The notes beneath the pieces are model-generated. The model was given only the letters and a program-made list of their open reading frames with translations. It did not search any database and was not told the DNA's origin. From contig NZ_LWLG01000003.1 in NCBI RefSeq assembly GCF_001652585.1, positions 1-32,000 on the forward strand: DNA of 32,000 bases, in the 5' to 3' direction. Source of the stretch: Thermosulfurimonas dismutans. GTDB taxonomy: Bacteria > Desulfobacterota > Thermodesulfobacteria > Thermodesulfobacteriales > Thermodesulfobacteriaceae. Position 1 is the stretch's first letter, and the number at the start of each line of letters is the position of its first letter. The translations under genes were made by a program, and so were the position numbers. Of this stretch, positions 983 to 21,685 are shown piece by piece.

Positions 983-994
983 GGGGTTTGGGCT

Positions 995-5014: not shown

Positions 5015-5016
5015 CC

Positions 5017-5385: not shown

Positions 5386-5397
5386 GGGAGAGGGGCC

Positions 5398-5766: not shown

Positions 5767-5770
5767 GAAT

Positions 5771-6310
5771 ATGGCCTGGCTCAAGGAATATTATCAAGAA
5801 ACGGTGGTACCGAAGCTCAGAGAAAAGTTTGGTTATCGGAATCTTTTTGAGGTTCCGAAGCTGGAGAAAATCTGTGTGAACATGGGGCTTGGGGCAGCGG
5901 TACAGGAACCCAAGCTTATTGATGAAGCCCTTGAAGAGCTGGCTATCATTGCTGGTCAGAGGCCAAAAGTCTGTCGGGCGCGGAAATCCATTGCGGCCTT
6001 TAAACTCCGGGCCGGGATGCCTATTGGGGTTATGGTGACCCTTAGGAAAGATCGGATGTACGATTTTCTGACCAGGCTCATCCATGTGGCCTTGCCTCGA
6101 GTAAGGGATTTTCGTGGTCTTCCGCGGCGAGGATTTGATGGCCGAGGAAACTACACCCTGGGAATTGAAGACCATACCATCTTTCCAGAGATTGATCCCA
6201 ATAAGGTGGGACGCATTAAGGGTATGAATATCACTATTGTGACCTCGGCCGAGACCGATGAGGAAGCTTATGAACTCTTAAAACTTATGGGGATGCCCTT
6301 TAGGAGGTAA
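5771..6310 (+). CDS. rplE: 50S ribosomal protein L5
   Basis: 179 aa; KICVNMGLG...[20 protein letters not shown]. Confidence 0.97.
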
Positions 6311-6313
6311 TAG

Positions 6314-6490
6314 ATGCCGCGCAAAGCTCAACTCTTCAAAAAACCCAAATTTAAGGTCAGACATCGGAATCGCTGTTCTATTTGCGGAAGGCCGAGGGGG
6401 TATATCCGGCGTTTTGGGCTTTGTCGGATATGTTTTAGAAGACTGGCCTCGGAGGGGAAGATCCCCGGGGTTAGAAAAGCAAGTTGGTAA
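6314..6490 (+). CDS. rpsZ: 30S ribosomal protein S14, type Z (zinc-binding)
   Basis: Not in the ORF track (58 aa). My translation from ATG 6314: [58 protein letters not shown]. It has CxxC...CxxC and sits between rplE and rpsH. Confidence 0.93.
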
Positions 6491-6503
6491 GGGGTGAACG
6501 GTT

Positions 6504-6899
6504 ATGATGACGGATCCTATTGCGGATATGCTGGCTCGTATAAGAAATGCTCTTATGGCCCGGCATAAAACGGTGGAAGTGCCGGCTTCCAAACTCAAGC
6601 TTGAGATTGCCAGAATCCTCAAAGAAGAGGGTTATGTTGAAGATTACGAGTTTGTACAAGAAGGTCCTCAAGGTAAGATTGTTATTACCTTAAAGTACGA
6701 TGAGAATCGGCGGCCGGTGATTGCAGGACTCAAGCGGGTTAGTAAGCCCGGCCGGAGGATTTATGCCGGAGTGAAGAAACTCCCCCGGGTAATGGGAGGT
6801 CTGGGAATTGCTATCATATCTACTTCCCGGGGAATTATGACCGACCATGAAGCTAGACGCCGTAGAGTAGGCGGCGAGATCCTCTGTGAGATCTGGTAA
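6504..6899 (+). CDS. rpsH: 30S ribosomal protein S8
   Basis: 131 aa; [13 protein letters not shown]...[31 protein letters not shown]. Confidence 0.96.
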
Positions 6900-6911
6900 A
6901 GGGGTGAGAGC

Positions 6912-7493
6912 ATGGCCACGCTGTCAAGGATCGGAAGAAGACCGGTACCCATACCCAAAGGGGTTAAGGTGGAGATAAAGGAAGGCAAGATCGTGGTGGA
7001 GGGGCCCAAAGGAAAGCTTGAAAAGCCCCTTCCGCCCATGGTGGAAGTGACCATTGAGGGCGAGGAAGTTCGGGTGATGCCCCAGGAGGTGCGTAAAAAG
7101 CTCCAGCGCAAGGCCAAGGCCTTCCAGGGGCTTACCAGGGCCCTTATCAACAATATGGTGACGGGAGTCAGTCAGGGATTTACCCGATCTCTGGATCTGG
7201 TAGGTCTCGGGTATCGAGCGGAAGTTAAAGGGGATGAGATCATCTTTCACCTGGGGTATTCGCATCCCATCAATTTCAAACTTCCTCCGGGCGTTAAGGC
7301 CAAGGTGGAAAAGGGGTCTGGAGATGTTCAGGCTCGGGTGGTCTTAGAAGGCATTGATAAAGAGGTTTTAGGGGAGACTGCGGCCCGTATCAAGCGATTG
7401 CGTCCCCCTGAACCTTACAAGGGCAAGGGTATTCGTTACACCGGAGAGCAGATTATCCGTAAGGCCGGTAAGGCTGGAAAGGCGGGTAAATAA
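6912..7493 (+). CDS. rplF: 50S ribosomal protein L6
   Basis: 193 aa; SRIGRRPVPIPKGVKVEI...GYSHPINFKLP...PEPYKGKGIRY. Confidence 0.95.
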   Translation: MATLSRIGRRPVPIPKGVKVEIKEGKIVVEGPKGKLEKPLPPMVEVTIEGEEVRVMPQEVRKKLQRKAKAFQGLTRALINNMVTGVSQGFTRSLDLVGLGYRAEVKGDEIIFHLGYSHPINFKLPPGVKAKVEKGSGDVQARVVLEGIDKEVLGETAARIKRLRPPEPYKGKGIRYTGEQIIRKAGKAGKAGK

Positions 7494-7529
7494 CGGGGGG
7501 AATAAGACCTCCCCGAAGGAGGCGAGTTT

Positions 7530-7916
7530 ATGCTTCGCAGGGAAAAATTCAGAAAGGTCGAACGTAGGATTCGGCGAAAGAAACGGGTGCGCAAGAAGAT
7601 TTTCGGCACTCCAGAGCGTCCCAGGCTTTCGGTTTACCGCAGTCTTAAACATATTTATGCCCAAATTATCGACGATACCCGGGGACATACCCTGGTTTCA
7701 GCCTCTTCTCTTTCGCCTGAGATTAGGGAGAGATGGGAGGAGCTGAAGAAGGAAGGTGGGAAGACGGCCATTGCGCGAGCGGTGGGAGAGCTCTTGGGAA
7801 AAAGGGCGGTTGAGGTGGGAATAAAGAAGGTGGCCTTTGATCGAGGTGGTTTTAAATATCATGGTCGGGTCAAGGCCCTGGCGGAAGGGGCCAGGAGTGC
7901 TGGCCTAGAATTTTAA
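7530..7916 (+). CDS. rplR: 50S ribosomal protein L18
   Basis: 128 aa; [24 protein letters not shown]...[20 protein letters not shown]. Confidence 0.94.
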
Positions 7917-7933
7917 GGTAAGGAGGCGGTTTC

Positions 7934-8455
7934 GTGGCTACGGCTAAAGGTGGAGAGGAATTCATTGAAAAGATCATCTTCATAAACCGGGTAGCTAAGG
8001 TTCACAAGGGAGGTCGGCGTTTCCGGTTTTCGGCCATTGTGGTAGTGGGTGACGGTAAGGGACGGGTAGGCTACGGTCTGGGAAAGGCGCCGGAAGTACC
8101 GGACGCTATTCGTAAGGCCCTTGAGAAAGCTCGGAAGAATATGATCACGGTTCCTGTGATAAACGGGACCATCCCGCACGAGATTATTTCAGATTTTGGG
8201 GCGGCCAAAGTTATGCTTAAGCCCGGCCGACCCGGAACGGGAGTGATTGCCGGAAGTACCATTCGAGCCATTATGGATGCGGCCGGCATCCGGGATGTGG
8301 TGACCAAGTGTATAGGGAGTACCAATCCCCACAATGTAGTCAAAGCCACTTTTAAGGCCCTTGAGGATCTTCAGAGTCCGGAATATGTGGCTAAAAAGCG
8401 CGGTTTTAATGTTGAAGAACTCATGGAGAGGATAGGCCATGGGGAAAAAGCTTAA
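7934..8455 (+). CDS. rpsE: 30S ribosomal protein S5
   Basis: 173 aa; GTG start; [36 protein letters not shown]. Confidence 0.96.
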
Positions 8456-8627
8456 GATTACGTTGGTAAGAAGTAAATACGGCTGGTCTAAGAAACAGCG
8501 GGCTACCATTGCTGGTCTTGGTCTTCGCAAAATTGGCCATACGGTTGTAAGGCCAGACAACCCCTGTATTCGAGGCATGGTGGAAAAAGTGAGACATTTG
8601 GTCAAGGTGGAGGAAATAAATGAGTGA
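8439..8627 (+). CDS. rpmD: 50S ribosomal protein L30
   Basis: 62 aa; [32 protein letters not shown]. Overlaps the rpsE 3' end. Confidence 0.93.
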
Positions 8628-9081
8628 GTTGATCACCCTTGCCAATTTGAAGCCCTTTGAGGGTTCCAAACATCGGGAAAAACGGGTAGGTCGTGGCCCG
8701 GGTTCTGGGCATGGGAAGACCTCCTGTCGCGGACAAAAAGGACAGCGTTCTCGTTCTGGAGGCGGAGTGCCACCTTGGTTTGAAGGTGGACAGATGCCTC
8801 TTATTCGTCGGCTTCCCAAGAGGGGCTTCAAAAATCCTTTTCGCGTAGAATATGAAGTGGTTAACGTTAAGGATCTGGCTAAACGGTTTTCCGAAGGTGC
8901 GGTAGTAGATATAGAAGCCCTAAAGGAAGCCGGTTTAGTAAAAGGTCGGAATGTAAGGGTGAAACTTTTGGGAGATGGTGAGATCAATTTCGCTTTAACC
9001 GTAAAGGTACATGCCGCCTCCAGGAGTGCCCGAGAAAAGATCGAGAAGGCTGGGGGCAAGGTGGAGCTGCTAGAGGCTTAA
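8620..9081 (+). CDS. rplO: 50S ribosomal protein L15
   Basis: 153 aa; [27 protein letters not shown]...[15 protein letters not shown]. Confidence 0.95.
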
Positions 9082-9085
9082 AGGG

Positions 9086-10399
9086 ATGCTCAGGACCTCG
9101 GGCGTAGAGAGCCTGGCCAATATTCCGGAGCTGAGACGGCGGGTCTTTTTCCTTTTGGCAGCTCTGGCTATTTATAGGATTGCGGTACATATCCCTACTC
9201 CGGGCATAAACGCTGAGGCCTTGGTAGCCCTTTTTTCCCGAGCCGGAGGAACGATCCTCGGGTTCGTAGATATGTTTTCGGGGGGGGCCCTGAGGCGACT
9301 TTCGGTTTGCGCCTTGGGGATCATGCCTTATATCAGTGCTTCCATTATTCTTCAGCTACTTACGGTGGTTTATCCCTCCCTAAAGGAGATGCAGAGGGAG
9401 GGCCCCGAAGGACGACGCAAGATTGCCTATTACACTAGGTATCTCACGGTTCTTATTTGTCTCGTTCAGGGATTTGGGATTGCGGTGGGGCTCGAGAAGA
9501 TGACCGGTCCCAACGGGGACCCCATCGTGATGTTTCCGGGCTGGGGCTTTAGGCTTCTTACCATGATAACCCTTACCACGGGTTCGGTCTTTCTCATGTG
9601 GCTCGGGGAACAGATCACCGAGCATGGGATTGGCAATGGAATTTCCATCTTGATTTTTGCCGGTATAGTGGCGCGTTTGCCATCAGCTATCATTAACACT
9701 TTTCGTTTCGTAAAAACCGGCGAACTTTCGGGAGCCATCCTCTTTTTTGTATTGCTCCTAGTGGTAGGGGTGCTGGCCTTTACCTGTTTCATGGAGATGG
9801 CTCAGCGTCGGATCCCCATTCACTATGCGCGTAGGATGGTGGGGCGTCAGGTAGTTGGGGGTCAGAGTACCTATTTACCCCTCAAGGTGAACACCGCTGG
9901 TGTAATTCCTCCCATTTTTGCCTCTTCAGTATTGATGTTTCCGGCCACGGTGGCCACTTTTGTGCCTTTGGGCTTTATTCAGAGCCTTTCCAGTCATCTG
10001 AGGCCGGGGCAGATATTATATGAGATCCTCTATGTAATCCTGATTATCTTTTTCTGTTATTTTTACACGGCCATTATCTTTAATCCTCAAGAAGTGGCCG
10101 ATAATCTTAAGAAATGGGGGGGGTTCATCCCTGGGATTCGCCCGGGAAGGGCTACGGAGGAATTTTTGGATCGGGTGTTGAATAGGATAACCCTTATTGG
10201 GGCCCTTTATATTTCGGCCATTTGTGTGTTGCCGACGTTTTTAATCGTGAAATTCAACGTGCCCTTTTATTTTGGAGGCACGGCCCTTTTAATCGTGGTG
10301 GGGGTGGCCATGGACACCATGGCCCAGCTTGAGGCCCATCTTTTGACCAGGCGATACGATAGCCTGGTGAGGGAGGGGCGGCTAAGACGCCGTCGCTAA
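9086..10399 (+). CDS. secY: preprotein translocase subunit SecY
   Basis: 437 aa, polytopic. IPELRRRVFFLLAALAIYRI...GIMPYISASIILQLL...GNGISILIF. Lies between rplO and adk. Confidence 0.96.
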   Translation: MLRTSGVESLANIPELRRRVFFLLAALAIYRIAVHIPTPGINAEALVALFSRAGGTILGFVDMFSGGALRRLSVCALGIMPYISASIILQLLTVVYPSLKEMQREGPEGRRKIAYYTRYLTVLICLVQGFGIAVGLEKMTGPNGDPIVMFPGWGFRLLTMITLTTGSVFLMWLGEQITEHGIGNGISILIFAGIVARLPSAIINTFRFVKTGELSGAILFFVLLLVVGVLAFTCFMEMAQRRIPIHYARRMVGRQVVGGQSTYLPLKVNTAGVIPPIFASSVLMFPATVATFVPLGFIQSLSSHLRPGQILYEILYVILIIFFCYFYTAIIFNPQEVADNLKKWGGFIPGIRPGRATEEFLDRVLNRITLIGALYISAICVLPTFLIVKFNVPFYFGGTALLIVVGVAMDTMAQLEAHLLTRRYDSLVREGRLRRRR

Positions 10400-10423
10400 A
10401 AATTCGAGAAAGGAGGGAGGGAG

Positions 10424-11065
10424 ATGAACATTGTATTTTTAGGACCTCCGGGCGCCGGTAAAGGCACACAAGCTAAACGGATTACGGAAAAGTACGGTAT
10501 TCCCCAGATTTCCACTGGAGATATGTTTCGGGAACATCTTTCCAAGGGTACGGAGCTCGGGAAAAAGGCCAAGGAATACATGGAAAAGGGCCAATTGGTA
10601 CCAGACGAAATCGTGCTCGGTATGGTAGAGGAGCGGCTTAAACAGCCCGATTGTGAAAAAGGCTTTATTCTTGACGGTTTCCCTCGCACGGTACCTCAGG
10701 CTGAGGCTTTGGATGAAATGTTGGCCAAGTGGGGAAAGAAAATTGATTATGCCATTGCCATCGAAGTTCCGGATGAGGAGCTGGTCAAGAGGCTTACCGG
10801 ACGTCGGACTTGCAAAAACTGCGGTATGATGTATCATATCATATTCAAGCCTCCGAAGGAGGATAATAAGTGCGATGCCTGCGGAGGCGAATTGTATCAG
10901 CGTGCGGATGATAATGAAGAGACGGTAAGGAATCGTCTCAAGGTTTATCACGAATCTACGGCTCCCCTGATTGATTATTACGAGAAGAAGGGTGTGCTTC
11001 ACCGGATTGATGGTATGGGGAGCATTGATGAGATTTTTGAGCGAATAGTCAAGGTTCTAGGGTAA
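10424..11065 (+). CDS. adk: adenylate kinase (zinc-lid type)
   Basis: 213 aa; P-loop GPPGAGKGTQA; lid CKNCG...CDACGGEL. Confidence 0.96.
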   Translation: MNIVFLGPPGAGKGTQAKRITEKYGIPQISTGDMFREHLSKGTELGKKAKEYMEKGQLVPDEIVLGMVEERLKQPDCEKGFILDGFPRTVPQAEALDEMLAKWGKKIDYAIAIEVPDEELVKRLTGRRTCKNCGMMYHIIFKPPKEDNKCDACGGELYQRADDNEETVRNRLKVYHESTAPLIDYYEKKGVLHRIDGMGSIDEIFERIVKVLG

Positions 11066-11074
11066 AGTTTTTAG

Positions 11075-11860
11075 GTGCGGCGGATATCTTTTAAAGGTTT
11101 GCCTAGCAAGAAGATAAAACTCAAGGCCCCCTGGGAAATCGAACTTCTCAGGCGGGCCAATAATATTGTCGCGGAGGTTTTGTTGCGTTTGGCAGAGGAA
11201 TCGAAACCCGGGGTCTCGACCTGGGATCTTGAGGTATTGGCCGATACCCTTTGTCGGAAGCGCGGAGGGCGGCCGGCCTTTAAGGGCTATCGGGGGTATC
11301 CCCATGCCCTTTGTGTTTCGATAAATGAAGAGATCATTCATGGTATGCCTCGAGAAGATAAGGTTCTCAAGGAAGGCGACATCGTGAGTTTCGATTTTGG
11401 CGTGGAATACGAGGGTTATATCGGGGATGCAGCTCTTACGGTAGCGGTGGGCAAAACCTCAGAGCTTGCGGAAAAGTTGATGAAGGTAACAGAGGAGGCC
11501 CTTTATATCGGGATAGACAAGGCCCGAGTAGGGAATCGGGTAGGGGATATTTCGGCGGCCATTCAGCGCCATGTGGAGAGACACGGTTTTTCGGTGATCC
11601 GGGATTTTGTAGGGCACGGTATAGGGCGCGAGCTTCATGAACCGCCGGAGGTTCCGAATTTTGGAAAACCTGGCAAAGGGCCGAGGCTTCAGGCTGGGAT
11701 GGTATTGGCTATTGAGCCTATGGTGGTTACGGGTAGCCCCAAAGTGAAGGTCTTGGATGATAAGTGGACGGCGGTTACTGAGGATGGAGGGCTTGCGGCC
11801 CATTTTGAACATTCGGTAGCTATCACGGCTCGTGGCCCCGAAATCCTTTCCAAGATTTAA
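11075..11860 (+). CDS. map: type I methionine aminopeptidase
   Basis: 261 aa; GTG start in the track (start uncertain); [20 protein letters not shown] and [10 protein letters not shown] motifs. Confidence 0.93.
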
Positions 11861-11868
11861 GGAGAAAC

Positions 11869-12111
11869 ATGGCTAAAGAAGATCATATTCAGGTGGAAGG
11901 TACGGTAGTCGAGGCATTGCCAAATGCTATGTTCCGGGTGGAGCTTGAGACCGGACACAAAGTTTTGGCCCATGTCTCGGGTAAGATGCGGATGCACTAC
12001 ATAAGGATCCTCCCTGGGGATAAGGTGGTGGTCGAGCTTTCACCTTATGATCTTAGCCGGGGTAGGATCGTTTATCGTGGAACCAAAAAGGATAGGGGAG
12101 GCAAAAAATGA
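11869..12111 (+). CDS. infA: translation initiation factor IF-1
   Basis: 80 aa; [44 protein letters not shown]. Confidence 0.96.
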
Positions 12112-12221
12112 AGGTTTCGGCCTCGGTAAAGAAACGTTGCCGCAAGTGTCGGATTATCAGGCGTAAAGGGGTAGTAAGGGTCATTTGCGAGAATCCCCGC
12201 CATAAACAGCGCCAGGGTTAA
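12108..12221 (+). CDS. rpmJ: 50S ribosomal protein L36
   Basis: Not in the track (37 aa). ATG 12108 overlaps the infA stop (ATGA). Translation: [37 protein letters not shown]. Confidence 0.93.
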
Positions 12222-12233
12222 GGAGGTGAGAAG

Positions 12234-12608
12234 GTGGCTCGTATTGCAGGTGTAGATATTCCAGACAACAAGCCTATTGAGATTGCTCTGACCTACATTT
12301 ATGGCATCGGGCGAACTTCGGCTCAGAAGATCCTTACCAAGGCCGAGGTGGATTGGTTTAAAAAGACCAGGGAGCTTTCGGAGGAGGAGCTGGCCCGGAT
12401 CCGTCAGATCTTGGAGAAGGAATACAAGGTTGAGGGTGATCTCAGGCGGGAAGTGAGCCAGAATATTCGGCGTCTTATGGATATTGGATGTTACCGAGGC
12501 CTTCGGCACAAAATGGGGCTTCCGGTGCGGGGTCAGAAAACCCGTTCCAATGCCCGTACTCGTAAGGGTCCGAGACCGTCTTCTCTAAGAGGTCGGAAGA
12601 AAAAGTAA
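12234..12608 (+). CDS. rpsM: 30S ribosomal protein S13
   Basis: 124 aa; GTG start; [25 protein letters not shown]...[18 protein letters not shown]. Confidence 0.96.
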
Positions 12609-12621
12609 GGGGTGAGGCACT

Positions 12622-13008
12622 ATGGCACGCAGAGTTCGGAGAAAGAAGAAAGTTAAAAAGAATGTTCCTGAAGGCATCGCCCACATTCATGCTACTTTCA
12701 ATAACACCATCGTGACTATTACGGATCGTCAGGGGAACACTATTGCATGGGCCAGCGGAGGCACGGAGGGCTTCAAGGGAACGCGTAAGGGAACGCCTTA
12801 TGCCGCTCAGCTGGCAGCCCAATCGGCGGCCAAGCGGGCCATGGAACACGGGATGAAGAAGGTTTGGGTTTACATCAAGGGCCCGGGGCCTGGTCGCGAG
12901 GCGGCCCTAAGGGCTTTGCAGGCGGCGGGACTTAAGATCACCTTTATTCGGGACGTCACGCCCATTCCGCATGACGGTTGTCGTCCGCCTAAGAGACGGC
13001 GGGTGTAA
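12622..13008 (+). CDS. rpsK: 30S ribosomal protein S11
   Basis: 128 aa; [22 protein letters not shown]...[18 protein letters not shown]. Confidence 0.96.
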
Positions 13009-13030
13009 AATTTCTTAAGGGGGGATAGCC

Positions 13031-13663
13031 TTGGCAAGGTATACTGGACCTAGATGTCGTCTCTGTCGTCGAGAGGGGATGAAGCTTTTCCTTAAGGGAG
13101 AGCGGTGTTACACCGATAAGTGCGCTTTTGAACGGCGTAGTTATCCTCCGGGACAGCATGGCCAGATGCAGCTTCGAGTTAAGCTTTCGGACTATGGAAT
13201 TCGTCTAAGGGAAAAGCAGAAGGTCAAAAGGATTTACGGAGTTTCGGAGAAACAGTTCCGTCGTTATTTCGAGAAGGCCACCCGGATGAAGGGCCAGGCC
13301 GGTCACAACCTTCTTCAGCTCCTGGAAAGAAGGCTCGATAATGTGGTGTATCGTCTAGGTTTTGCGGCCTCGCGGGCTCAGGCCCGGCAGATGGTGGCTC
13401 ACGGCTGGTTTACGGTAAACGGCAGAACCGTGGATATTCCTTCTTATATCGTGGATCCAGGGGAAGTCATTGAGCTCAAAGAGAAGTATCGTAACAATAC
13501 GTATATTCAGGAAAACCTGGAGGCTGTGGTAAGGCGAGGAGTGCCTCAGTGGCTTGAGCTTGAGGCTGAAAATTTCCGTGGAAGGGTCAAGGCCCTGCCC
13601 ACCAGAGAAGATATTACCATGCCCATTCAGGAAAGCCTGATCGTGGAGTTCTACTCCCGCTAA
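13031..13663 (+). CDS. rpsD: 30S ribosomal protein S4
   Basis: 210 aa; TTG start; [30 protein letters not shown]; S4 RNA-binding domain. Confidence 0.96.
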
Positions 13664-13684
13664 AAAAAGACCGGGGTGGAGGAT

Positions 13685-14686
13685 ATGAGTGTTTTAAGGG
13701 AAAAAATAGGTAACACCAATTTGATCCGACCGGAAGGAGTTAAGAGTCACAAGGATTCTCGTCCCCCTTACTACGGGAAGTTTATTATCGAACCTCTGGA
13801 AAGGGGGTTTGGGGTGACTATTGGAAACGCCCTGAGGAGGATTTTACTCTCCTCCATTCCCGGGGCGGCTATTACGGCCGTACGCATTGAAGGGGCTCCT
13901 CATGAATTTACCAGTTTGCCTGGTGTCATTGAGGATGTGACGGATATTGTTTTGAATCTCAAAGGGGTGCGTTTTCGCCTTGACGGAGAGGGTCCGTATC
14001 TCTTTAAGCTAGAGAAGAAGGGCGAATCGGAAGTGAAAGCCGGGGATATAGAGACCGATGGACAAGGGGAAGTGGTTAATCCTGACCATCACATCGCTAC
14101 CCTTACCAAAGACGGAGTTCTTTCTATGGAACTCCAGGTAGAACGAGGAAGAGGTTACATTCCTGCGGAATTTTCTCGTGAAGGGAATGAAATCGGAATT
14201 ATTCCGGTGGATGCCATCTTTTCTCCTATTACTAGGGTGAATTTTACGGTTACCCAGGCTCGAGTGGGCAAAAGCAGTGATTTTGACCGTTTAGTCCTGG
14301 AGATCTGGACGGATGGTTCCATAGAACCTGAGGAGGCCTTGCGACAGGCGGCAGGTATTCTTAGAGAACAGCTTTTGGTCTTTGGAGGGGAAGAAGTTGA
14401 AGTTCAAGCCCTTCCTCCTCAGAAGGAAGAGTCCAAAGCCAATTTGGCTGAACTTTTGAACAAGCCTTTGGAGGAGCTTGAGATTTCATCTCGCTCCATC
14501 AATTGTTTGCGCAATGCCGGTATAAAATATGTGGGCGATTTGGTAACTCGCACGGAAACCGAAATGCTTCGGATCAAAAATTTTGGTCGGAAGTCCCTTG
14601 AAGAGATAAAAGATCGTTTGAACGAGATGGGTCTGAGCTTAGGAATGGACATAGAATGGCAACCGCCTGAAGAAAAAGGAGCTTAA
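13685..14686 (+). CDS. rpoA: DNA-directed RNA polymerase subunit alpha
   Basis: FIIEPLERGFGVTIGNALRRILLSSIPGAA; C-terminal domain LEISSRSINCLRNAGIKYVGDL. I prefer ATG 13685 (GGTGGAGGA just upstream) over the track's GTG 13676; both are in frame. Confidence 0.93.
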   Translation: MSVLREKIGNTNLIRPEGVKSHKDSRPPYYGKFIIEPLERGFGVTIGNALRRILLSSIPGAAITAVRIEGAPHEFTSLPGVIEDVTDIVLNLKGVRFRLDGEGPYLFKLEKKGESEVKAGDIETDGQGEVVNPDHHIATLTKDGVLSMELQVERGRGYIPAEFSREGNEIGIIPVDAIFSPITRVNFTVTQARVGKSSDFDRLVLEIWTDGSIEPEEALRQAAGILREQLLVFGGEEVEVQALPPQKEESKANLAELLNKPLEELEISSRSINCLRNAGIKYVGDLVTRTETEMLRIKNFGRKSLEEIKDRLNEMGLSLGMDIEWQPPEEKGA

Positions 14687-14698
14687 AGGGGTGAGGCC

Positions 14699-15334
14699 AT
14701 GAGACATCGCAAGTTGAGTCGTAGGCTAGTGACTAAGTGGGAACACCGAATTTCCATGATGCGTAACCAGGTTACGGACCTTTTACGTTATGGCAGGATT
14801 ACCACTACTCTGGCCAAGGCCAAGGAGCTACGCCGGGTGGCGGATAGAATGATCACCCTGGCCAAGCGCGGAGATCTGGCCTCCCGGCGCCGGGCGCTGG
14901 CGGTTATCCGGGACAAGGCCGTGGTGCGTAAGCTTTTTACGGAACTTCGTGAGAAGTACATGGATCGTCCGGGGGGCTACACCCGAATTATCAAGATTGG
15001 ACCCCGCCGTGGGGATGCGGCCATGATGGCCATTGTGGAGCTGGTGGAGGAAAAGCTCCAGCACAAGCGTTCCAAGAAGAAGATCGAGGCTGAAAAGAAG
15101 GCCGAAAAAGAGATTCGCGAGGCTTTAAAGAAAGAGGAGCCGAAACCTGCGGAGGAAACCCAACCTGCCGAGGAGGCGTCCGGGAGCCAGGAAGCGGCCC
15201 CGGCTGAAACCTCCGAGGCCGAAACTGCGGCTCCGGAAAAGACTCAGGACGAGGCCCAGGCTTCTACCTCTTCCGAGTCCGAAGAGGGCTCCGAACCCTC
15301 CGCCGAAACTTCCTCCAAGGAAGCCAAGTCCTAA
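14699..15334 (+). CDS. rplQ: 50S ribosomal protein L17 with long acidic C-terminal extension
   Basis: The N-terminal ~120 aa is canonical ([10 protein letters not shown]...[24 protein letters not shown]). It is followed by a ~90-aa K/E-rich then E/A/S/T/P-rich low-complexity tail. Confidence 0.94.
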
Positions 15335-15381: not shown

Positions 15382-15392
15382 TATTAGTTTTT

Positions 15393-15453
15393 TCCTGACG
15401 CTAAAACTCAGCGTCCGGCGATCATGCCGGTCGGCTGAAATGGATTGTTAAGA
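15393..15453 (-). repeat. attC-like site (terminal, cassette E)
   Basis: Minus-strand read: TCTTAAC...inner arms (CAGCCGACCGGCATGATCGCCGGACGCTGAG)...GTCAGGA. It shares the CTGAA-N-ATTGTTA and ACG-N-AAACTCAGCG blocks with the other copies. Confidence 0.7.
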
Positions 15454-15456
15454 ATT

Positions 15457-15711
15457 TTAATATACTTCCCTTCGATGACCTACTTTTAGGATATAAATCT
15501 CCTTCTTTTTCCAGTCTACATTAAAAAGGACTCTGTAATTCCCTATTCTCAACCTGTAATCTGCTAAAGGATGAGTTTTTAAATGTTTTATTTGTGAAAT
15601 GTTTGGAAAATTTGCTAACTCTTCTATTCCTTGCTTAATTTTTTTCAAGTTCTTCCGATCAATTTTCTTCAAATCTTTAAATACGCTTTTGGCATAAATT
15701 ATTTTAAACAT
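15457..15711 (-). CDS. RelE/ParE-family type II toxin
   Basis: 84 aa; FKDLKKIDRKNLKKIKQGIEEL...YRLRIGNYRVLFNVDWKKKEIYILKVGHRREVY, the classic RelE/ParE C-terminal pattern. Overlaps the upstream small ORF by 8 nt. Confidence 0.85.
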   Translation of the reverse strand: MFKIIYAKSVFKDLKKIDRKNLKKIKQGIEELANFPNISQIKHLKTHPLADYRLRIGNYRVLFNVDWKKKEIYILKVGHRREVY

Positions 15712-15892
15712 TTAATTTTTTCCAAATTTCTTCATGAGTAAAAACCTCTCCATTTTCGATCTCTTTTTTTCTTTCTTCAATTTCTCTTTTAAGCTTTTGG
15801 TATTTTTCTTGCTTTAAAAGAATTTTGGCAAAATATATAATCTTTTCTTTATCTTCAGGATCAAGTTTGTTTAAGATATCCAATTTTTCCAT
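15704..15892 (-). CDS. putative antitoxin (by position, upstream of the RelE/ParE toxin)
   Basis: 62 aa, helical and charged. Translationally coupled to the toxin. GGAG Shine-Dalgarno upstream (AAGTTGGAGAAATATTATG). No family recognised by eye. Confidence 0.6.
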   Translation of the reverse strand: MEKLDILNKLDPEDKEKIIYFAKILLKQEKYQKLKREIEERKKEIENGEVFTHEEIWKKLNV

Positions 15893-15965
15893 AATATTTC
15901 TCCAACTTGCTTAAATCTTTATCTTGCGAAGTAGGACTTATTTTCTTTTTATCTCGGATCGTTCC

Positions 15966-16084
15966 ATTTGTGAAGTATACTCCTTAGCGGTCTATGCGGT
16001 CTTGTTGGGCTGGTAGGCCGGTCAAATATTTGAAAGCGTTTGCGGCTGGGGTTTTGCCAGGTTCGCTGAAGAGGTTTGTTATTA
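15966..16084 (-). repeat. degenerate attC-like site (cassette D / E boundary)
   Basis: Minus-strand read: TAATAAC-AAACCTCTTCAGCGAACC...GACCGCTAAGGAG-TATACTT-CACAAAT. The R''-side block CGCTGAAG-N-TTTGTTA matches the other copies and the inner arms CTCTTCAGCG / CGCTAAGGAG pair. The GTTRRRY box is lost. Confidence 0.45.
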
Positions 16085-16195
16085 CTGGAAGCATCTTTTG
16101 CTAGACACCAGAACCCTATGAATATCAAGGGTTTTGAGGTCTATAAAATGTCTACTCTTTGATGACCCCATTAATATTATTACCGTAACTTTCAT
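16082..16195 (-). CDS. hypothetical micro-ORF (37 aa) in a short cassette
   Basis: My translation: MKVTVIILMGSSKSRHFIDLKTLDIHRVLVSSKRCFQ. Strong Shine-Dalgarno (GAGGTGG, 4 nt before the ATG). The stop TAA lies inside the TAATAAC box, as in the other cassettes. No family recognised. Confidence 0.3.
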   Translation of the reverse strand: MKVTVIILMGSSKSRHFIDLKTLDIHRVLVSSKRCFQ

Positions 16196-16274
16196 GTTCC
16201 CACCTCGAATTTATGTTTTCTCTAACTTAGCTCTTTGTTTTGTATGACGAGAAAATTTTATTTTCATTATTATT

Positions 16275-16346
16275 TTCTAACGTCATGGGTCACTTGCCGC
16301 CAAGGAGCGCAGCGGATTGGCGGTCAAGTGCACCCAATTGTTAGCA
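16275..16346 (-). repeat. attC-like site (cassette C / D boundary)
   Basis: Minus-strand read: TGCTAAC-AATTGGGTGCACTTGACCGCCAATCCGCTGCGCTCCTTGGCGGCAAGTGACCCATGAC-GTTAGAA. Arms TTGACCGCCAA / TTGGCGGCAAG pair. Confidence 0.8.
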
Positions 16347-16348
16347 TT

Positions 16349-17215
16349 TTATTTTAATTCAATGAAAGCTTCTTCATTGTCTGTAAATAATTCTGCAATA
16401 TTATTATGATAAGTAGCTAGCCACGAATATTTGGACTTGATTTTATCGTTTTCTGTAGCATTATATGCATTTCTAATATTATTACCATGTTTTTTTAGCC
16501 AGTAGTCAATATTGTATTGATAACCTTCATTAATAATGCGTTGTCTTTCTTCTTTATTAGCATTATTATAGCGTTCAACTTGTTCTTTGGAATAACGCCA
16601 ATCCAAACCTTCAAGACATATGGTCATATAGTCCAAAAAAATAATTTCTTTATTATCAACTATTCCCTTTCTGAATATACTTAATGGATCTACTTCTGGA
16701 GCATACCATTTCCTATGTGGATGATTCGAGAAATATTCAAACACATCATTAGTTATTGCAATCACCGGCACACTAATGGATTGTTCTAAATGATATGCTT
16801 GCAATAAACTTTTACTAATTATAATATCTTGATCGCTATACCACCATCCGATATCAATTCCTCCCCTTAGAAAAATCGAGTCAAGTACACATGCAGCTTG
16901 AGAATAAGCAAGGCTAAGGAATTCCGACATAAGTGGATCAAAATCGCCTTCACTCTGGGTAGCCTTTGACTTGAGAGGAATATGTATGACCAAACAATCA
17001 GAAAAAGCTAATACTTTTTTGTTATATAATTTGTTTATGTGAGAAATAATTTTTTCTGTTGGTTTATAATAAAATTGTTTTTGAACGTGCCATAATTCTT
17101 TATAAATAGATTGTATCTCTGTAACAGTTTCAATCTTTGCAATCCTATTTCCAAATCCTAAAATATCAATAAATACGGTAATCCCAATGGATATATCTTC
17201 TGGTTTTATCATCAT
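16349..17215 (-). CDS. hypothetical protein with class-III nucleotidyl-cyclase-like motifs (integron cassette C)
   Basis: 288 aa. GITVFIDILGFGN (cf. F-x-D-I-x-G-F-T), VLAFSDCLVI (second acidic strand), FLRGGIDIGW (cf. R-I-G-I-H-x-G). The ~120-aa C-terminal region is unassigned. The ORF call is solid; the function is motif-level only. Confidence 0.8.
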   Translation of the reverse strand: MMIKPEDISIGITVFIDILGFGNRIAKIETVTEIQSIYKELWHVQKQFYYKPTEKIISHINKLYNKKVLAFSDCLVIHIPLKSKATQSEGDFDPLMSEFLSLAYSQAACVLDSIFLRGGIDIGWWYSDQDIIISKSLLQAYHLEQSISVPVIAITNDVFEYFSNHPHRKWYAPEVDPLSIFRKGIVDNKEIIFLDYMTICLEGLDWRYSKEQVERYNNANKEERQRIINEGYQYNIDYWLKKHGNNIRNAYNATENDKIKSKYSWLATYHNNIAELFTDNEEAFIELK

Positions 17216-17221
17216 TTCTTA

Positions 17222-17283
17222 TGCTAACGTCCAAACTCAACGGCTCGGCGTATAGCCGGATCCGCTGAAGCGAATTGTTAGGT
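17222..17283 (-). repeat. attC-like site (cassette B / C boundary)
   Basis: Minus-strand read: ACCTAAC-AATTCGCTTCAGCGGATCCGGCTATACGCCGAGCCGTTGAGTTTGGAC-GTTAGCA. The arms pair imperfectly, leaving unpaired bases. The LemA stop TAA is inside ACCTAAC. Confidence 0.85.
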
Positions 17284-17943
17284 TTCTTGTTTTTCTCTTT
17301 GCGATACACTCTCTAAAGCTTTTTCAACCTTAGCCGAAGCTTTTTCAGCTGCTTCTAAAACTTTTGAAGATGTGGTTTTTATAAGAGCCTTCAACATTTC
17401 TCCATCATCTGTACGAAATTCTTTTAAAGCTTCCACTGCATCTATTTCAATAGAAAAATATGGAGCTTCTTTAAATCCTAGTGTATGAGCTATAAAGACT
17501 GTTGGAATACTATTTCTAGTTGTATTGTATTCTCTAGCTACTGCATTATATTCTTCTCTCTTTTTCTGTAAATCATTTTCCACATTTTCTAGTTGTTTCA
17601 TTAACATTTGATATGTTTCGTTCGCCTTAAGCTCAGGAAAGTTTCTCATAATATTATTTAATTGCCCCAAAATTTTATCAGCTTTTTGGTAGGATGTCAT
17701 TATTTCTGTAATATTAGCTTCTTTTGATATTGTTATATATGTAAGCTTTTCGTGTGACCCATAAGCAGAAGCTATATCAATCAACTTATTTATTAGATCT
17801 AACCTCTTTTTCATTGCCACTAAAATATTTGAATGTGCTTCTTTTACTAAATGAGCTTTTCTCTGTAATGAGTTATACTGAATCCCCAAAAAAAACATTG
17901 TTCCTATTAAAATCAAGAAAACAAAAGACAATATATCAAGCAT
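17278..17943 (-). CDS. lemA: LemA family protein
   Basis: 221 aa. N-terminal TM helix, then YNSLQRKAHLVKEAHSNILVAMKKRLDLINKLID and FPELKANETYQMLMKQLENVENDL...YNAVAREYNTTRNSIPTVFIAHTLGFKEAPYF, the LemA signature blocks. Confidence 0.9.
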   Translation of the reverse strand: MLDILSFVFLILIGTMFFLGIQYNSLQRKAHLVKEAHSNILVAMKKRLDLINKLIDIASAYGSHEKLTYITISKEANITEIMTSYQKADKILGQLNNIMRNFPELKANETYQMLMKQLENVENDLQKKREEYNAVAREYNTTRNSIPTVFIAHTLGFKEAPYFSIEIDAVEALKEFRTDDGEMLKALIKTTSSKVLEAAEKASAKVEKALESVSQREKQET

Positions 17944-17961
17944 TTTAGGCCTCCATAACTT

Positions 17962-18285
17962 TTATTCATTTTTAGGTAATATAATTCCCATTTTTGCTTC
18001 AGCTATCTTAAAATTCGTGCCACTAATATCAACAGCCTTAAATCTTTTTTTAATTAATTCTTTAATATATAATTTATTATAAATAAAAGGAAACACAAAC
18101 CATGATAATCCGCCAGTGATAATAGCTAACAAAAAACTAATAATTGCCCACTTCCAATCACCTCTAAAAAGAGGGACAAAAACTTCAAAAAATAACATAG
18201 TCCATGAAAATCCTATTGGCGCCTCTTTTATTTCTTTGGTAACTGGATGTTGAAAAATAATTTTTCCGTAAGCCATAATCCACAT
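17962..18285 (-). CDS. small two-TM membrane protein (DUF2628-like)
   Basis: 107 aa. GFSWTMLFFEVFVPLFRGDWKWAIISFLLAIITGG resembles the GF-x-W-x-AFFF...W motif of DUF2628-type proteins. Lies 18 nt upstream of lemA in the same cassette. An alternative start is ATG 18276. Confidence 0.75.
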   Translation of the reverse strand: MWIMAYGKIIFQHPVTKEIKEAPIGFSWTMLFFEVFVPLFRGDWKWAIISFLLAIITGGLSWFVFPFIYNKLYIKELIKKRFKAVDISGTNFKIAEAKMGIILPKNE

Positions 18286-18345
18286 CCTAACGCCAAACCT
18301 CAGCGGCCCACTGTAAAGCGGGTCCGCTTAAGAGATTTGTTAGGT
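18285..18345 (-). repeat. attC-like site (cassette A / B boundary)
   Basis: Minus-strand read: ACCTAAC-AAATCTCTTAAGCGGACCCGCTTTACAGTGGGCCGCTGAGGTTTGGC-GTTAGGA. The stop codon of the 366-aa ORF is inside ACCTAAC. The next ORF's ATG abuts GTTAGGA. Confidence 0.85.
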
Positions 18346-19440
18346 GCTCACCTTAAAATCTTTTGACAACATTAACGAGGCCATAGAGGCACTAATAAAA
18401 CATATCCCTTTAATTTTTTTTGCTATTTTAAATCCTTCATTTCTGTAAGTTGAAAGCATTTCTGCTAATTTCCCTAATTTATCAGTTGATAAAACCATTT
18501 TTACAGCAGTTCCACTAAAAAAATGTCTTAGCTGAAAATGTTTTTTACCATTTTCATTTAATAAAATGCCATGGTCACCACTACAAATAAAAAACTCCCC
18601 TCCATTTCTACAAAGGCGACTTGTCATGTACAAACCAAATCCGGAATTGTGCCAAGGATCATTTCTATTAATTCTTCTCCCCTTGAAAACTTTACCAGAT
18701 ATACCAGGTAGCAAGGCCTGTTGAATTGCATCTGAGTGAGATTCTATTTTTAGATAAGGATTACTAGATAAGGCCTTTTTAATCCCTTTACCTGAGTCCA
18801 GTATTGCTATTTCCGCTTTATGATATTGTGGCCAATATTGAGCGCAGTACCATAGGTCAGGGGAATCGCTATGTTCTAAAATATTTCTTAGTATTTCTCT
18901 CAATGAATATGTTATTGTTTCAGCTAAATTTCCATATTTTTGCTGAGTTAATCTTATTGCTAACTCTTCAGATTTTGACTCTATAATTTGTTGGACTGGT
19001 GCCAAATTATCTTTAGCTTCTTTTTCAATATCCGATAACTTCCAAGAAGTTACTGGAAGATATGTACTACTCCCAAATGCTTCACCTGGTTTTTTACCGT
19101 GATCTAGATAAAAAGCCTTAAAAAAGCCCATATGGGCTGCATAATTTTTATTTTGATGGTTTTTACACCAAATACATCTGTGATCATTGAATTTTGAATA
19201 ATCTCGAATAATTTTGGCTACATAAATCATTGAAAATGGCTCAATTCTCCCCATTTGAGCAAAATCAATTACAACTTTATGATTTCGTGGGATAGAAAAT
19301 AAGTTGTCACAAAAGGCCAATACAGCTTCCAGTGATGGATTTTGCGGAAAATATACCAATGTCTTCATTATATGTTGCCTAACATATCTTTTATGCTTTC
19401 TTGGATAGCCCCCCTCTAAGGCTATATTAAATTTGGCCAT
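18340..19440 (-). CDS. hypothetical GHKL/HATPase-domain protein with STAS-like N-terminal region (integron cassette A)
   Basis: 366 aa. N-box-like LREILRNILEHS, G1 ILDSGKGI, G2 NSGFGLYM. The N-terminal KVVIDFAQMGRIEPFSMIYVAKIIRDY looks like an anti-sigma-antagonist (STAS) fold. An alternative start is M25 (19368), just after a GTTAGGC core. Confidence 0.8.
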   Translation of the reverse strand: MAKFNIALEGGYPRKHKRYVRQHIMKTLVYFPQNPSLEAVLAFCDNLFSIPRNHKVVIDFAQMGRIEPFSMIYVAKIIRDYSKFNDHRCIWCKNHQNKNYAAHMGFFKAFYLDHGKKPGEAFGSSTYLPVTSWKLSDIEKEAKDNLAPVQQIIESKSEELAIRLTQQKYGNLAETITYSLREILRNILEHSDSPDLWYCAQYWPQYHKAEIAILDSGKGIKKALSSNPYLKIESHSDAIQQALLPGISGKVFKGRRINRNDPWHNSGFGLYMTSRLCRNGGEFFICSGDHGILLNENGKKHFQLRHFFSGTAVKMVLSTDKLGKLAEMLSTYRNEGFKIAKKIKGICFISASMASLMLSKDFKVST

Positions 19441-19622
19441 ATATCAGAACTTCGCCAAAGTCAAACAGCTTTTTCAATAATTTTTTATGAAAAATTTTTT
19501 ATTTTTAAAATTTTAAAAGATTATTTAGAAATATCTTAAATAAAGAGCTTAAATCTCTCCAAAAAGGATGGTAGCTTTTTATGTAAACTTGAGAGAAGTA
19601 ATATAATTTTCTAATATTCCCT

Positions 19623-20215
19623 TTGGCGTGTAAGCAAAAATGGAAAAGGATAACTTATCTAGCCGTGGAAAGAAACGTGGCGCCCTCTACCCAGAACCAG
19701 GCCTTGAATGCCTTGCTCTTTTTCTACCGTAAGGTCCTCGAAAAAGACATCGCTTCATACATCGAGGCCGTAAAGGCCCGGGAGAGGCCAAGGTTTCCGG
19801 TGGTGCTTTCCGAGCTTGAGGAGACCTATTATCTAGTTTGTGTCCTGATGTACGGAGGAGGTCGCCTAGGAAGCCAGGCGGTAAGATTGTGCGTGAAAGA
19901 TCTTGATCTCGAACGAGGGCTTGTAACGGTCTATTCGGGGAAGGGTGATCGGGACCGGATAACCGTTTTTCCCAAGAGGCTTGTTCTGGAATTTGAAAAT
20001 TACTCGCCAGGGTGCGTAAAATCTACGAGCAGGGTTGGCGGACGGAGGGCGGCGGGGGGCCGCGGTGGTTAGTCAGCTGGATCGCTGAAGGGTTCTTTAG
20101 GGCCGGTTTTTTTCGGTTGAAGGGGCCATCGGCCCCGAATAGAATGTCCCTAGGGTCGGCTCTTCCTATACCCAGGGGTAAAAAGGCTTCAAGGAAATTC
20201 TTTGCGGAGCGTTCG
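19623..20215 (+). pseudogene. intI: integron integrase (IntI-like tyrosine recombinase) remnant, 5'- and 3'-truncated and frameshifted
   Basis: LAVERNVAPSTQNQALNALLFFYRKVL...RFPVVLS...RLCVKDLDLERGLVTVYSGKGDRDRITVFP is colinear with IntI1 (STHRQALAALLFFYGKVL...[24 protein letters not shown]). The reading frame switches near 20005 (VRKIYEQ...EGGGG continues in another frame). The ~55 N-terminal aa and the whole catalytic C-terminal half are absent. Confidence 0.75.
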
Positions 20216-20218
20216 AGC

Positions 20219-21685
20219 ATGGGTAAAGATCCCGGTGGGCAGGTCGGAGGGCTTCTTTCGTATCTGGCGCTGAAAGAATCTCTGGCTGAAATCCAAAACT
20301 TTTTGCAGGAGCTGGCCAGGAGGGGCGAGGTTTATGTCACCGGAGGAGCGGTAAGGGATATCCTGCGGGGAGATAGGGTAGGAGACCTGGACCTCACGGT
20401 GGTGGATCTCTCTCCGCGAGAGGTGGCGGAGGAGGCCGCAAGGAGGCTTTCCTGGGCTCTGGTTCCGCTTCACGAGGAGTTCGGAGTCTTCCGGGTGGCG
20501 CGCGGGAGTTTTAGCCTGGATATTTCCGGCCTTCGTCCCGGGGCTATGAATATTGAGGACGATCTTCGGTTGAGGGACTTTTCCTTCAATGCCCTGGCAG
20601 TTCCTCTTTCTAAAGCCCTTGAGAGATCGCCTTCGGAGTGGCCTCTTCTTGATCCCTGCCAAGGGCTTCGGGATCTTAAAGCTGGTCTGATCCGGGCTAT
20701 CTCTCGACAAAATCTTATAGATGATCCCTTGAGGATCTTAAGGGCCTATCGTTTTTACGCCTTGGGATTCGGAGAAATAGAGGCGGAGACCCGGAGGTGG
20801 CTTTCGGCAGAAAGGGCAAGGCTTTCGAAGGTAGCCCGGGAGCGCATTCTCTATGAGCTTATGCTCATTCTCGGCCGAATGGCTGGAGAGGCCTTTTCCC
20901 TTATGGCCGAAGACGAGGTTCTCTTCGAGATCTTTCCCGAATTCGCGGAAGCCCGGGGGGTGCCCCAACCCTCCTTCCATCACCTGGATGTTCTGGGCCA
21001 CAGCCTTCTCGCCCTCGCAAGAGCCGAGGAGGTCCTGCGGGCCCCGGGTAAGTTTTTCGGGGATCCCGAACCCTTCGCGGAACTTCTCTCAGACCCCGAG
21101 CGAAGGATAGCCGTCAAATTGGCCGCCCTTTTTCACGACCTCGGGAAACCGAGAACTTTTGCCGTTCGGGACCGGATCACCTTTTACGAACACGAAAAAG
21201 TGGGGGCCCGGATCTTTCTTGAGATGGCGGAACGATTGCGTTTCAAGAAGGATCTCGCTAAAAGGGTAGCCCATCTCATCCGGAACCACATGCGGCCCTT
21301 TCATTTACTTGCTGAAAAAGAAAAAGGCCGACTTACAGCCAGGGCCAAGAGGAGGCTTTTGAGGGATGTTCCAGAGTATCCCGATCTCTTTGTGGTGGCC
21401 ATGGCAGATGGTCTGGCGGCGAGAGGTCCGGACAAGGACCCAGACGAAGAGGAAAAACTTGCAGAATTTTTTAGGGAACTCCACGAGTTTTACCGAGAAA
21501 CCTTGCGGAAGGTGGAGAGGAAGAGACTGGTTACCGGCCGTGACCTCATAGAGATCTTCGGACTTGCGCCTGGTCCCATCTTCCGGAAACTCCTTGAAGC
21601 CGTAGAGGAGGCCCAGGTTGAGGGCCGGGTAAAGACCCGCGAAGAGGCCCTGGAGTATATCGCCGGAATCATAGATACCTTATAG
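20219..21685 (+). CDS. cca: CCA-adding tRNA nucleotidyltransferase (PolyA-pol head plus HD domain)
   Basis: GGAVRDILRGDRVGDLDL head motif, RLRDFSFNA, HD-domain HHLDVLGHSL...ALFHDLGKP. The track ORF starts at 20012, but its first 69 aa read through intI debris. ATG 20219 (or 20144) is the likely start. Confidence 0.85.
   Translation: MGKDPGGQVGGLLSYLALKESLAEIQNFLQELARRGEVYVTGGAVRDILRGDRVGDLDLTVVDLSPREVAEEAARRLSWALVPLHEEFGVFRVARGSFSLDISGLRPGAMNIEDDLRLRDFSFNALAVPLSKALERSPSEWPLLDPCQGLRDLKAGLIRAISRQNLIDDPLRILRAYRFYALGFGEIEAETRRWLSAERARLSKVARERILYELMLILGRMAGEAFSLMAEDEVLFEIFPEFAEARGVPQPSFHHLDVLGHSLLALARAEEVLRAPGKFFGDPEPFAELLSDPERRIAVKLAALFHDLGKPRTFAVRDRITFYEHEKVGARIFLEMAERLRFKKDLAKRVAHLIRNHMRPFHLLAEKEKGRLTARAKRRLLRDVPEYPDLFVVAMADGLAARGPDKDPDEEEKLAEFFRELHEFYRETLRKVERKRLVTGRDLIEIFGLAPGPIFRKLLEAVEEAQVEGRVKTREEALEYIAGIIDTL

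Follow-up and report, generated by a model that had tools for sequence, protein, structure and literature searches.

The window analysed here is a stretch of 32,000 nucleotides from Thermosulfurimonas dismutans (contig NZ_LWLG01000003.1, positions 1 to 32,000), and the first cassette of an integron within it carries a minus-strand gene (18340-19368) whose product joins a STAS-like domain to a GHKL ATPase domain. Judged by its sequence, this product is a two-domain homolog of VapK and CapK, and it is probably an orphan, defence-linked sensor kinase of the CapK/VapK class. The class itself is already known (CapK/VapK, 2026); what is new is a large, mobile, partner-less and cassette-borne clade. 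CapK and VapK are STAS-GHKL kinases that respond to DNA damage by turning on immune pathways, with a separate STAS protein as their substrate. The clade described here appears to be a far larger sister group in which neither substrate nor effector is encoded; it is found as a single-gene cassette across phyla and is repeatedly linked to DISARM and Druantia.

CapK (helix-turn-helix (HTH)-STAS-GHKL) is turned on by single-stranded DNA (ssDNA) that binds between the STAS and GHKL domains of the kinase itself, and it phosphorylates a separate repressor, CapS, composed of a STAS domain and a winged HTH (wHTH), thereby regulating CBASS, Bub and Bil operons (EMBO J 2026; PMC13373217). VapK (STAS-GHKL) phosphorylates the STAS antitoxin VapS at S48, which releases the PIN toxin VapC, and the vapKSC operon protects against phage Bas42 (PMC13373217). 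Residues of the ssDNA groove are W68, K237 and K239 in CapK and F54 in VapK; activation by ssDNA was demonstrated for CapK only (PMC13373217). An earlier note on this DNA, made from the sequence alone, recognised no named system in the protein. The module now has named relatives in CapK and VapK, but the partner-less clade is indeed not described there: forms that are orphan, carried by integrons or fused to DISARM or Druantia go unmentioned in the CapK/VapK paper (PMC13373217). Literature on DUF4325/STAS-like proteins and on DISARM with GHKL domains yielded nothing beyond the CapK paper, and the main texts of the integron-defence preprints and of a 2026 cassette-screen preprint contain no protein of this type.

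Domain structure and kinship with VapK and CapK

Homology to VapK extends over both domains. A profile built from 107 diverse family sequences aligns with a VapK family alignment (120 members built from database homologs) over 267 columns, covering query residues 1-296 (HHalign 99.2%, E = 2.2e-19). The N-terminal domains alone also align (94.6%, E = 7.2e-8), whereas a negative control comparing the family N-terminal domain with the GHKL half of VapK gave 0.2%. The sequences of VapK itself and of Vibrio cholerae CapK were recovered by optical character recognition from the PDF supplement of PMC13373217; the decisive profile comparison used the database homologs of VapK. Both families combine a STAS-like and a GHKL domain without an HTH, and they share an F-D-F...x-P motif, an h-G-F motif, an N box of the form E-x3-N-x3-H-S and the G1, G2 and G3 boxes. 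They differ in that the window family is longer at the C-terminus by about 45 residues, which include a conserved A-S-x-A-S tail, and in that neither VapS nor VapC is encoded next to the gene, whether in the window, where it forms a single-gene cassette, or at 51 homologous loci.

The likeness to CapK lies in the STAS-GHKL core. The family hidden Markov model (HMM) matches CapK collinearly from KNYLNRLGFF (over NYAAHMGFF) through the N and G1 boxes, while hhalign against the single CapK sequence recovers only the stretch from N box to G1 (52%). In the latter alignment a predicted beta-hairpin, Q177-Y-W179-P180-x-x-x-K184 (18817-18840), falls in register with the hairpin of CapK that bears the ssDNA-contacting residues K237 and K239; its conservation and register suggest a similar role. 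Unlike CapK, the window protein lacks an HTH at its N-terminus, and its gene is accompanied neither by a gene for a CapS repressor nor by a regulated operon downstream. Searches with phmmer and HMMs found no CapS/VapS-like or stand-alone STAS open reading frame (ORF) in the window or the 51 fetched loci. No VapC-like PIN toxin or wHTH partner appears at the homolog loci; the next cassette in the window encodes a two-transmembrane protein and LemA.

Residue numbers refer to a 342-residue form of the protein, in which Met25 of the 366-residue ORF is residue 1, and all features of the gene are on the minus strand. The full-length AlphaFold2 model (pLDDT 79.7, pTM 0.83) comprises an N-terminal STAS-like domain (residues 1-112; 19033-19368), a helical linker (113-146; 18931-19032) with helices at 112-121 and 125-141, a GHKL domain of the Bergerat fold (147-294; 18487-18930) and a C-terminal extension (295-342; 18343-18486).

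The GHKL domain contains all motifs of an ATP-binding or kinase domain in the expected order. These are the N box E158-ILR-N162-ILE-H166-S167 (18868-18897, coordinates verified), the G1 box D191-S-G193-K-G195 (18784-18798; 100% conserved), the G2 box N241-S-G243-F-G245 (18634-18648) and a G3-like G286-T287 (18508-18513). Across 106 representatives, which share just 31-50% identity with the window protein, E158, N162, H166, D191, G193, G195, G243, G245 and G286 are 97-100% conserved, and the residues of the four boxes, T287 included, are 94-100% conserved. The ATP lid, modelled with low pLDDT, carries the family motif P221-G-[IV]-[S/T]224-G-K (P221-G-I-S224-G-K in the window protein; 18691-18708), with Ser or Thr at position 224 in every sequence. 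Pfam HATPase_c matches 27 of 30 family members scanned singly (best E = 4.6e-6), and HATPase_c_2 matches 25 of the 30, weakly. In Foldseek the best size-normalised match of the model is SpoIIAB (TMt 0.67-0.73, probability 1.0); behind it come Topo VI-B, DesK and MprB, the last two matched through their ATP-binding domains. Because the family Pfam matches, the predicted structure and the motif conservation agree, the Bergerat-fold motifs are confirmed not to be a chance resemblance, and the domain is of the SpoIIAB type (E-x3-N-x3-H), as the earlier note had read from the N, G1 and G2 boxes when it proposed HMM searches and structure prediction. The absence of a histidine-phosphotransfer (DHp) domain and of transmembrane segments is likewise borne out: neither the window protein nor the 30 family members have a HisKA/DHp or transmembrane-type match in Pfam, and no helical hairpin precedes the GHKL domain in the model. 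Identity as a histidine kinase was rejected for want of a DHp domain.

Residues 1-110 are predicted with confidence in the full-length model, as a unit of beta-alpha-beta-alpha-beta order (pLDDT about 90); modelled in isolation, the same domain has low confidence (pLDDT 64.7). Its top Foldseek ranks are mostly STAS domains (prestin/SLC26, RsbS, an anti-sigma antagonist), none of them significant singly (E >= 0.05, TM 0.36-0.55), and the list includes a DUF4325 viral protein. The Pfam models STAS and DUF4325 each match one of the 30 family members, marginally (E about 0.07), and a profile of the domain shows no similarity to a SpoIIAA profile (sequence checked against PDB 1auz_A). The domain thus appears STAS-like in topology, but sequence comparison does not place it in the SpoIIAA/RsbV family. 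The earlier suggestion of an N-terminal STAS module is supported by this apparent topology and by homology to the STAS domain of VapK, but not as regards membership of the antagonist family or the presence of an acceptor serine.

That residue, a conserved Ser or Thr at the N-terminus of helix 2, is the site at which STAS antagonists are phosphorylated. The family N-terminal HMM aligns the VapS segment VILDFSNVKMFAS48PFF with VVIDFAQMGRIE43P44F45, so the domain resembles VapS and DUF4325-type proteins around V-I-L-D-F...A-S-P-F-F. The equivalent site in the window protein is R41-I-E43-P44-F45-S46 (19231-19248), within a domain that also contains N-Y76-A-A-H-M-G-F-F. Pro44 is invariant in the family. 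At position 43, 46% of the sequences have Glu, among them all the window protein's close relatives, and only 17% have Ser or Thr. Positions 41-47 follow the pattern [FWHR]-[VIF]-[E/..]-P-F-[GA]-[ML], with Ser or Thr at no more than 20% in any column and no conserved hydroxyl. The canonical STAS phospho-acceptor is thus missing, with a phosphomimetic-looking Glu43 in its place, and, in contrast to VapS, the domain shares one covalent chain with the kinase.

These data bear on the proposal of the earlier note that a kinase and its own substrate are fused in one chain. A partner switch that is self-contained in this way, its GHKL kinase phosphorylating the STAS domain of the same chain at the canonical serine, fits the domain order (STAS-like, then SpoIIAB-like kinase) and the lack of a separately encoded substrate. 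It is largely refuted by the conservation pattern at E43-P44-F45 and fits poorly with the absence of profile similarity to SpoIIAA. Moreover, CapK and VapK use their built-in STAS domain as a sensor element and phosphorylate a separate STAS protein. We regard the self-contained switch as very unlikely. Because the acceptor is not conserved and because of the CapK/VapK precedent, the built-in STAS domain would rather be a sensor or scaffold element than a substrate.

A different substrate within the same chain may be offered by the C-terminal extension, which is not found in VapK: the HHalign match ends at query residue 296. In the model it consists of a long helix (295-318) and a flexible tail with pLDDT below 50. 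The tail motif A327-S328-M-A-S331-L-M-L (18367-18390; family consensus [A/P]-S-x-A-S-x-h-L) is a candidate built-in phospho-acceptor or docking helix. Serine at the N-terminus of a helix is the established phospho-site geometry of SpoIIAA Ser58. The two serines of the tail, S328 and S331, each 86% conserved among the 107 sequences, lie at the N-terminus of a short helix and so resemble this STAS geometry (VapS S48); a tether of low pLDDT holds them about 30 residues away from the kinase core. The tail could thus replace VapS, with a change of conformation or oligomeric state, or release of the tail, as the output. The argument is purely inferential, the tail could instead serve docking or oligomerisation, and no effector activity is evident in the protein; we consider a cis-substrate role unlikely.

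A single-gene cassette and its mobile relatives

The ORF map of the window gives a 366-residue frame at 18340-19440 whose translation contains SLREILRNILEHS, AILDSGKGI, HNSGFGLYM and KVVIDFAQMGRIEPFSMIYVAKIIRDY, as the earlier note had quoted. The length given there probably does not hold for the native protein. An integron core, GTTAGGC (19377-19383), lies inside the frame, 9 nucleotides upstream of Met25 (ATG at 19368), and marks the attI x attC junction at the 5' boundary of the cassette; cores of the same GTTRRRY form occur upstream of a number of homologs. Homologs are about 341 residues long and start at the equivalent of Met25. The native product is therefore most likely the 342-residue protein encoded at 18340-19368, a coding sequence consistent with the verified translation, and the first 24 codons (19369-19440; MAKFNIALEGGYPRKHKRYVRQHI), which cross the cassette boundary in frame and are missing from all homologs, are most likely read-in from the attI side.

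Downstream, a 60-nucleotide attC (18285-18344) has an R'' of CCTAAC that overlaps the TAA stop codon and an R' of GTTAGGA, and it folds better than shuffled sequence (z = -3.05). On the minus strand, an attC-like element with RYYYAAC...GTTRRRY cores follows each gene block of the array (repeat families D1-D3). Upstream, an AT-rich spacer on the attI/promoter side (19441-19622) separates the cassette from an integron integrase pseudogene on the plus strand (19623-20072), divergent from the cassettes. This intI remnant matches NCBIfam TIGR02249 (E = 1.9e-27) at positions 50-174 of 315 only; three-frame translation shows that about 50 N-terminal residues and the C-terminal half are gone, a truncation on both sides. 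The five-cassette array (about 15390-19620) has a guanine-plus-cytosine (GC) content of 30-33%, in a window otherwise at about 52%, and sits between rplQ (L17; 14699-15334) and a CCA-adding/polyA-polymerase-HD gene (20012-21685), into which the intI remnant extends. With an upstream core, a foldable attC downstream and an intI remnant alongside, the gene reads as the attI-proximal (first) cassette of a decayed, sedentary chromosomal integron. Since the attC begins at the stop codon, there is no partner gene in the cassette. The earlier placement of a partner-less gene first in a cassette array is thereby upheld. A promoter scan upstream of the gene gave nothing above shuffle expectation, with one weak sigma-70-like site at 19539-19510.

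The family is large. It comprises 711 clusters at 90% identity, and 2,928 clusters at 50% identity with E <= 1e-3, 546 of which have E <= 1e-30. Among the 150 best-scoring of the 2,928 representatives, nearly all are 325-345 residues long and match end to end.

Gene context was examined at 37 loci from different species (+/-6 kb), with the partner search extended to 51 loci. No neighbouring protein family is common to more than two of the 37 loci. A GTTRRRY core lies within 80 nucleotides upstream of the gene, 18-48 nucleotides before the start, in 15 loci (binomial P = 4e-8), and a RYYYAAC core lies at the stop codon in 11 (P = 2e-6). In almost every host the gene has a lower GC content than its flanks. 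A Vibrio homolog lies in a superintegron-like array, a Stutzerimonas homolog on a small integrase island, an Acinetobacter homolog on a 6.8-kb plasmid beside BrnTA, as the sole accessory gene of its kind there, and a Phaeobacter homolog on a 15-kb plasmid. Coprococcus phage NatCom_10489 (PV036424.1 1831-2835; 4989-5993 of fetched locus L052) encodes a full-length homolog, 36.5% identical to the window protein, near its genome end among small unannotated genes, and this homolog may be a prophage-encoded moron.

This distribution argues against an ordinary RsbW-like anti-sigma factor or general-stress regulator that binds a host sigma factor. The structural similarity to SpoIIAB/RsbW (PF13581) favours such a role, and one JGI annotation reads 'anti-sigma regulatory factor'. 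The family also shares with these kinases the E-x3-N-x3-H N box and the weak HATPase_c_2 matches. However, SpoIIAB and RsbW are single-domain proteins of about 140 residues encoded with a STAS antagonist and a sigma factor, whereas the window protein is a three-part protein of 342 residues. No RsbV-type or sigma-factor gene lies beside the family gene in any of the 37 loci, and horizontal mobility across phyla with a GC content below that of the hosts fits poorly with a host-specific sigma partner. The possibility raised in the earlier note, that homologs are always paired with RsbV or a sigma factor in core genomes, is thus not what is seen. An RsbW-type core regulator was rejected on the grounds of mobility and neighbours, and a role of this kind is extremely improbable.

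Two further observations concern the family. At three loci (L029, L023 and L035) its copies look frameshifted or truncated, the HMM match being split, which suggests that some hosts are losing the gene. An unnamed viral protein of 233 residues (BFVD J7KH07) matches the full-length model in Foldseek (E = 2e-8, TMt 0.65, 256 columns); on this structural resemblance, a phage may encode in it a relative of the STAS-GHKL module or a mimic.

Links to anti-phage systems and a proposed mode of action

Integron cassettes are now known as stores of anti-phage genes, and the module described here recurs in such company. The free-standing form in the window is found elsewhere joined to a DISARM DrmA variant (PADLOC PDLC02567), to DrmC and to DruE. 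In one family member (P0118) a DrmC PLD nuclease (E = 1.5e-117) is fused to the full STAS-GHKL module. In another (P0122) a DruE-like C-terminus (E = 4e-39) reads into the module, and an insertion sequence interrupts the upstream part. This arrangement is that of a 699-residue ORF (metagenome contig ERZ26869290:ctg270429; 1387-3486 of fetched locus L053), which consists of about 300 final DruE-like residues followed by the full module, with an insertion sequence (Transposase_mut) just upstream, and is probably the remnant of a much larger DruE-module fusion. A third member (P0156) carries a PcrA/UvrD tudor tail on the module and follows a GmrSD_N gene in an apparent operon. Positions 39-277 of the PADLOC DrmA model PDLC02567 align to the STAS-GHKL module, which explains why this model is the only PADLOC match of the window protein. 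In Sulfitobacter sediminilitoris (4610-11005 of fetched locus L024) drmA (1165 residues, E = 4.9e-238) and drmB (612 residues, E = 3.5e-77) are followed directly by a separate STAS-GHKL gene. This pattern of fusion and fission with DrmA suggests that the module is an accessory sensor of DISARM in some lineages. The 32-kb window contains no DISARM or Druantia genes (ORF map; PADLOC on the cassette genes).

Neighbours of homologs point the same way. PADLOC was run on the 122 nearest neighbours, two on each side, and its strong matches include Drt8 (two members), Drt9, SoFic (two), PDC-M22A/B, PDC-S32, PDC-S02 (Mrr), PDC-S24 (two) and MTase_II. Neighbours scanned individually include AbiU, PDC-M40B, PDC-M51A, REase_II, weaker pAgo- and SIR2-like cassettes and a capH-like HTH protein. 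In a Pseudomonas island the family gene lies a few genes from a GajA/GajB-like pair (Gabija, by Pfam domains). The search for co-occurrence with defence genes that the earlier note had proposed thus returned both fusions and neighbours, in DISARM, Druantia and other systems.

The same fusions lend some weight to the idea of a GHKL ATPase switch or clamp that is not a kinase, acting as an accessory sensor or regulator of helicase-nuclease machines such as DISARM and Druantia, with solo copies acting in trans. GHKL ATPase domains do regulate nucleases in other defence proteins, for example VcSduA (PMC12137116). The lowest Foldseek E-value of the model is to Topo VI-B, and the module occurs in fusions with DrmA, DrmC and DruE as well as behind drmAB. 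Yet the best size-normalised structure and the Pfam matches are of the kinase type (SpoIIAB, HATPase_c_2), the closest characterised homologs are kinases, and most solo copies have no DISARM nearby. Such a switch seems to us improbable. A MORC/Topo-type ATPase was rejected as a candidate, as there is no transducer domain and the kinase-type relatives are closer.

A sensor kinase of the CapK/VapK class would work as follows. The STAS-like domain would pack on the SpoIIAB-type GHKL domain, whose catalytic boxes are all intact, and by analogy with CapK and VapK the two domains together would probably sense a cue of infection or damage. The cue would probably be a nucleic acid, as in CapK, where ssDNA bound in the groove between the domains triggers ATP-dependent phosphorylation of Ser or Thr; in the window protein the intact ATP site would drive phosphorylation of the target. 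Because no cognate STAS substrate or effector is encoded alongside, the target would have to come either in trans, from the host, a phage or a resident defence system, or in cis, from the protein's own tail. The gene is mobile by itself, on integron cassettes, small plasmids, integrative islands and a prophage, and elsewhere the module is joined to DISARM and Druantia by fusion or adjacency. Since it is wired into these two systems in this way, anti-phage or stress sensing would be its most likely role.

Several points weigh against this reading. Alone, the window protein has no significant match in Pfam, NCBIfam or PDB sequences, and a 30-sequence family profile has none against PDB sequences. 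Identity to VapK is only about 18%, so the function may have diverged. The aromatic residue reported to stack on ssDNA (CapK W68, VapK F54) cannot be mapped with confidence: the numbering of F54 does not agree with the VapK sequence recovered from the PDF, and the best-aligned column, 41, is F, W, H or Y in about 64% of the family and Arg in the window protein. A kinase without an encoded substrate or effector makes an incomplete mechanism, and the kinase activity, activating ligand, target and phenotype ascribed to the partner-less clade would all follow by analogy with its characterised relatives. Defence-type neighbours were explicitly mapped in at least 10 of the 37 loci, an enrichment that is qualitative and has no matched background, and several homologs are plain insertions among housekeeping genes. 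Finally, as the integron is decayed and its intI a pseudogene, expression in the native host is uncertain.

A bolder version of the sensor-kinase reading, which we hold to be rather unlikely, makes the partner-less clade a complete one-gene immune or abortive-infection module. The protein would be a nucleic-acid-activated kinase with the A-S-x-A-S helix as its built-in substrate and a 'pre-phosphorylated' Glu in the STAS domain, or it would directly phosphorylate a target that is universally conserved among hosts or phages. On this view integrons would spread a plug-in sensor that was also hard-wired into DISARM and Druantia. If active, proteins of this clade would represent a minimal, one-protein kinase-based defence or the missing sensor or regulator of some DISARM and Druantia variants, and a new functional class among integron cassettes.

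Other cassettes and window features

The second cassette (17278-18285, minus strand) holds two genes under one attC, which encode a 107-residue protein with two transmembrane segments and a LemA-family protein (PF04011, 1e-29). The third (16349-17215, minus strand) encodes a 288-residue protein with no match in Pfam, NCBIfam or PADLOC; its N-terminus, ITVFIDILGFGNRI, resembles by eye the F-x-D-I-x-G-F motif of nucleotidyl cyclases, and its attC (16270-16352) is the best-folding of the array (z = -5.45). The following interval (15893-16270) is apparently gene-less and contains an attC-like R'' repeat member (16048-16081) that folds no better than shuffled sequences; it may be a degraded or empty cassette. 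The last cassette (15457-15892, minus strand; attC 15390-15450) encodes a ParE-family toxin (84 residues, PF05016, 1e-12) and, upstream of it, a putative antitoxin of 62 residues, and looks like the usual stabilising toxin-antitoxin cassette of chromosomal integrons. Outside the array, the coding strand of the ribosomal-protein operon region at 1-15000 shows a positive GC skew (+0.2 to +0.28) that is unusually strong and uniform.

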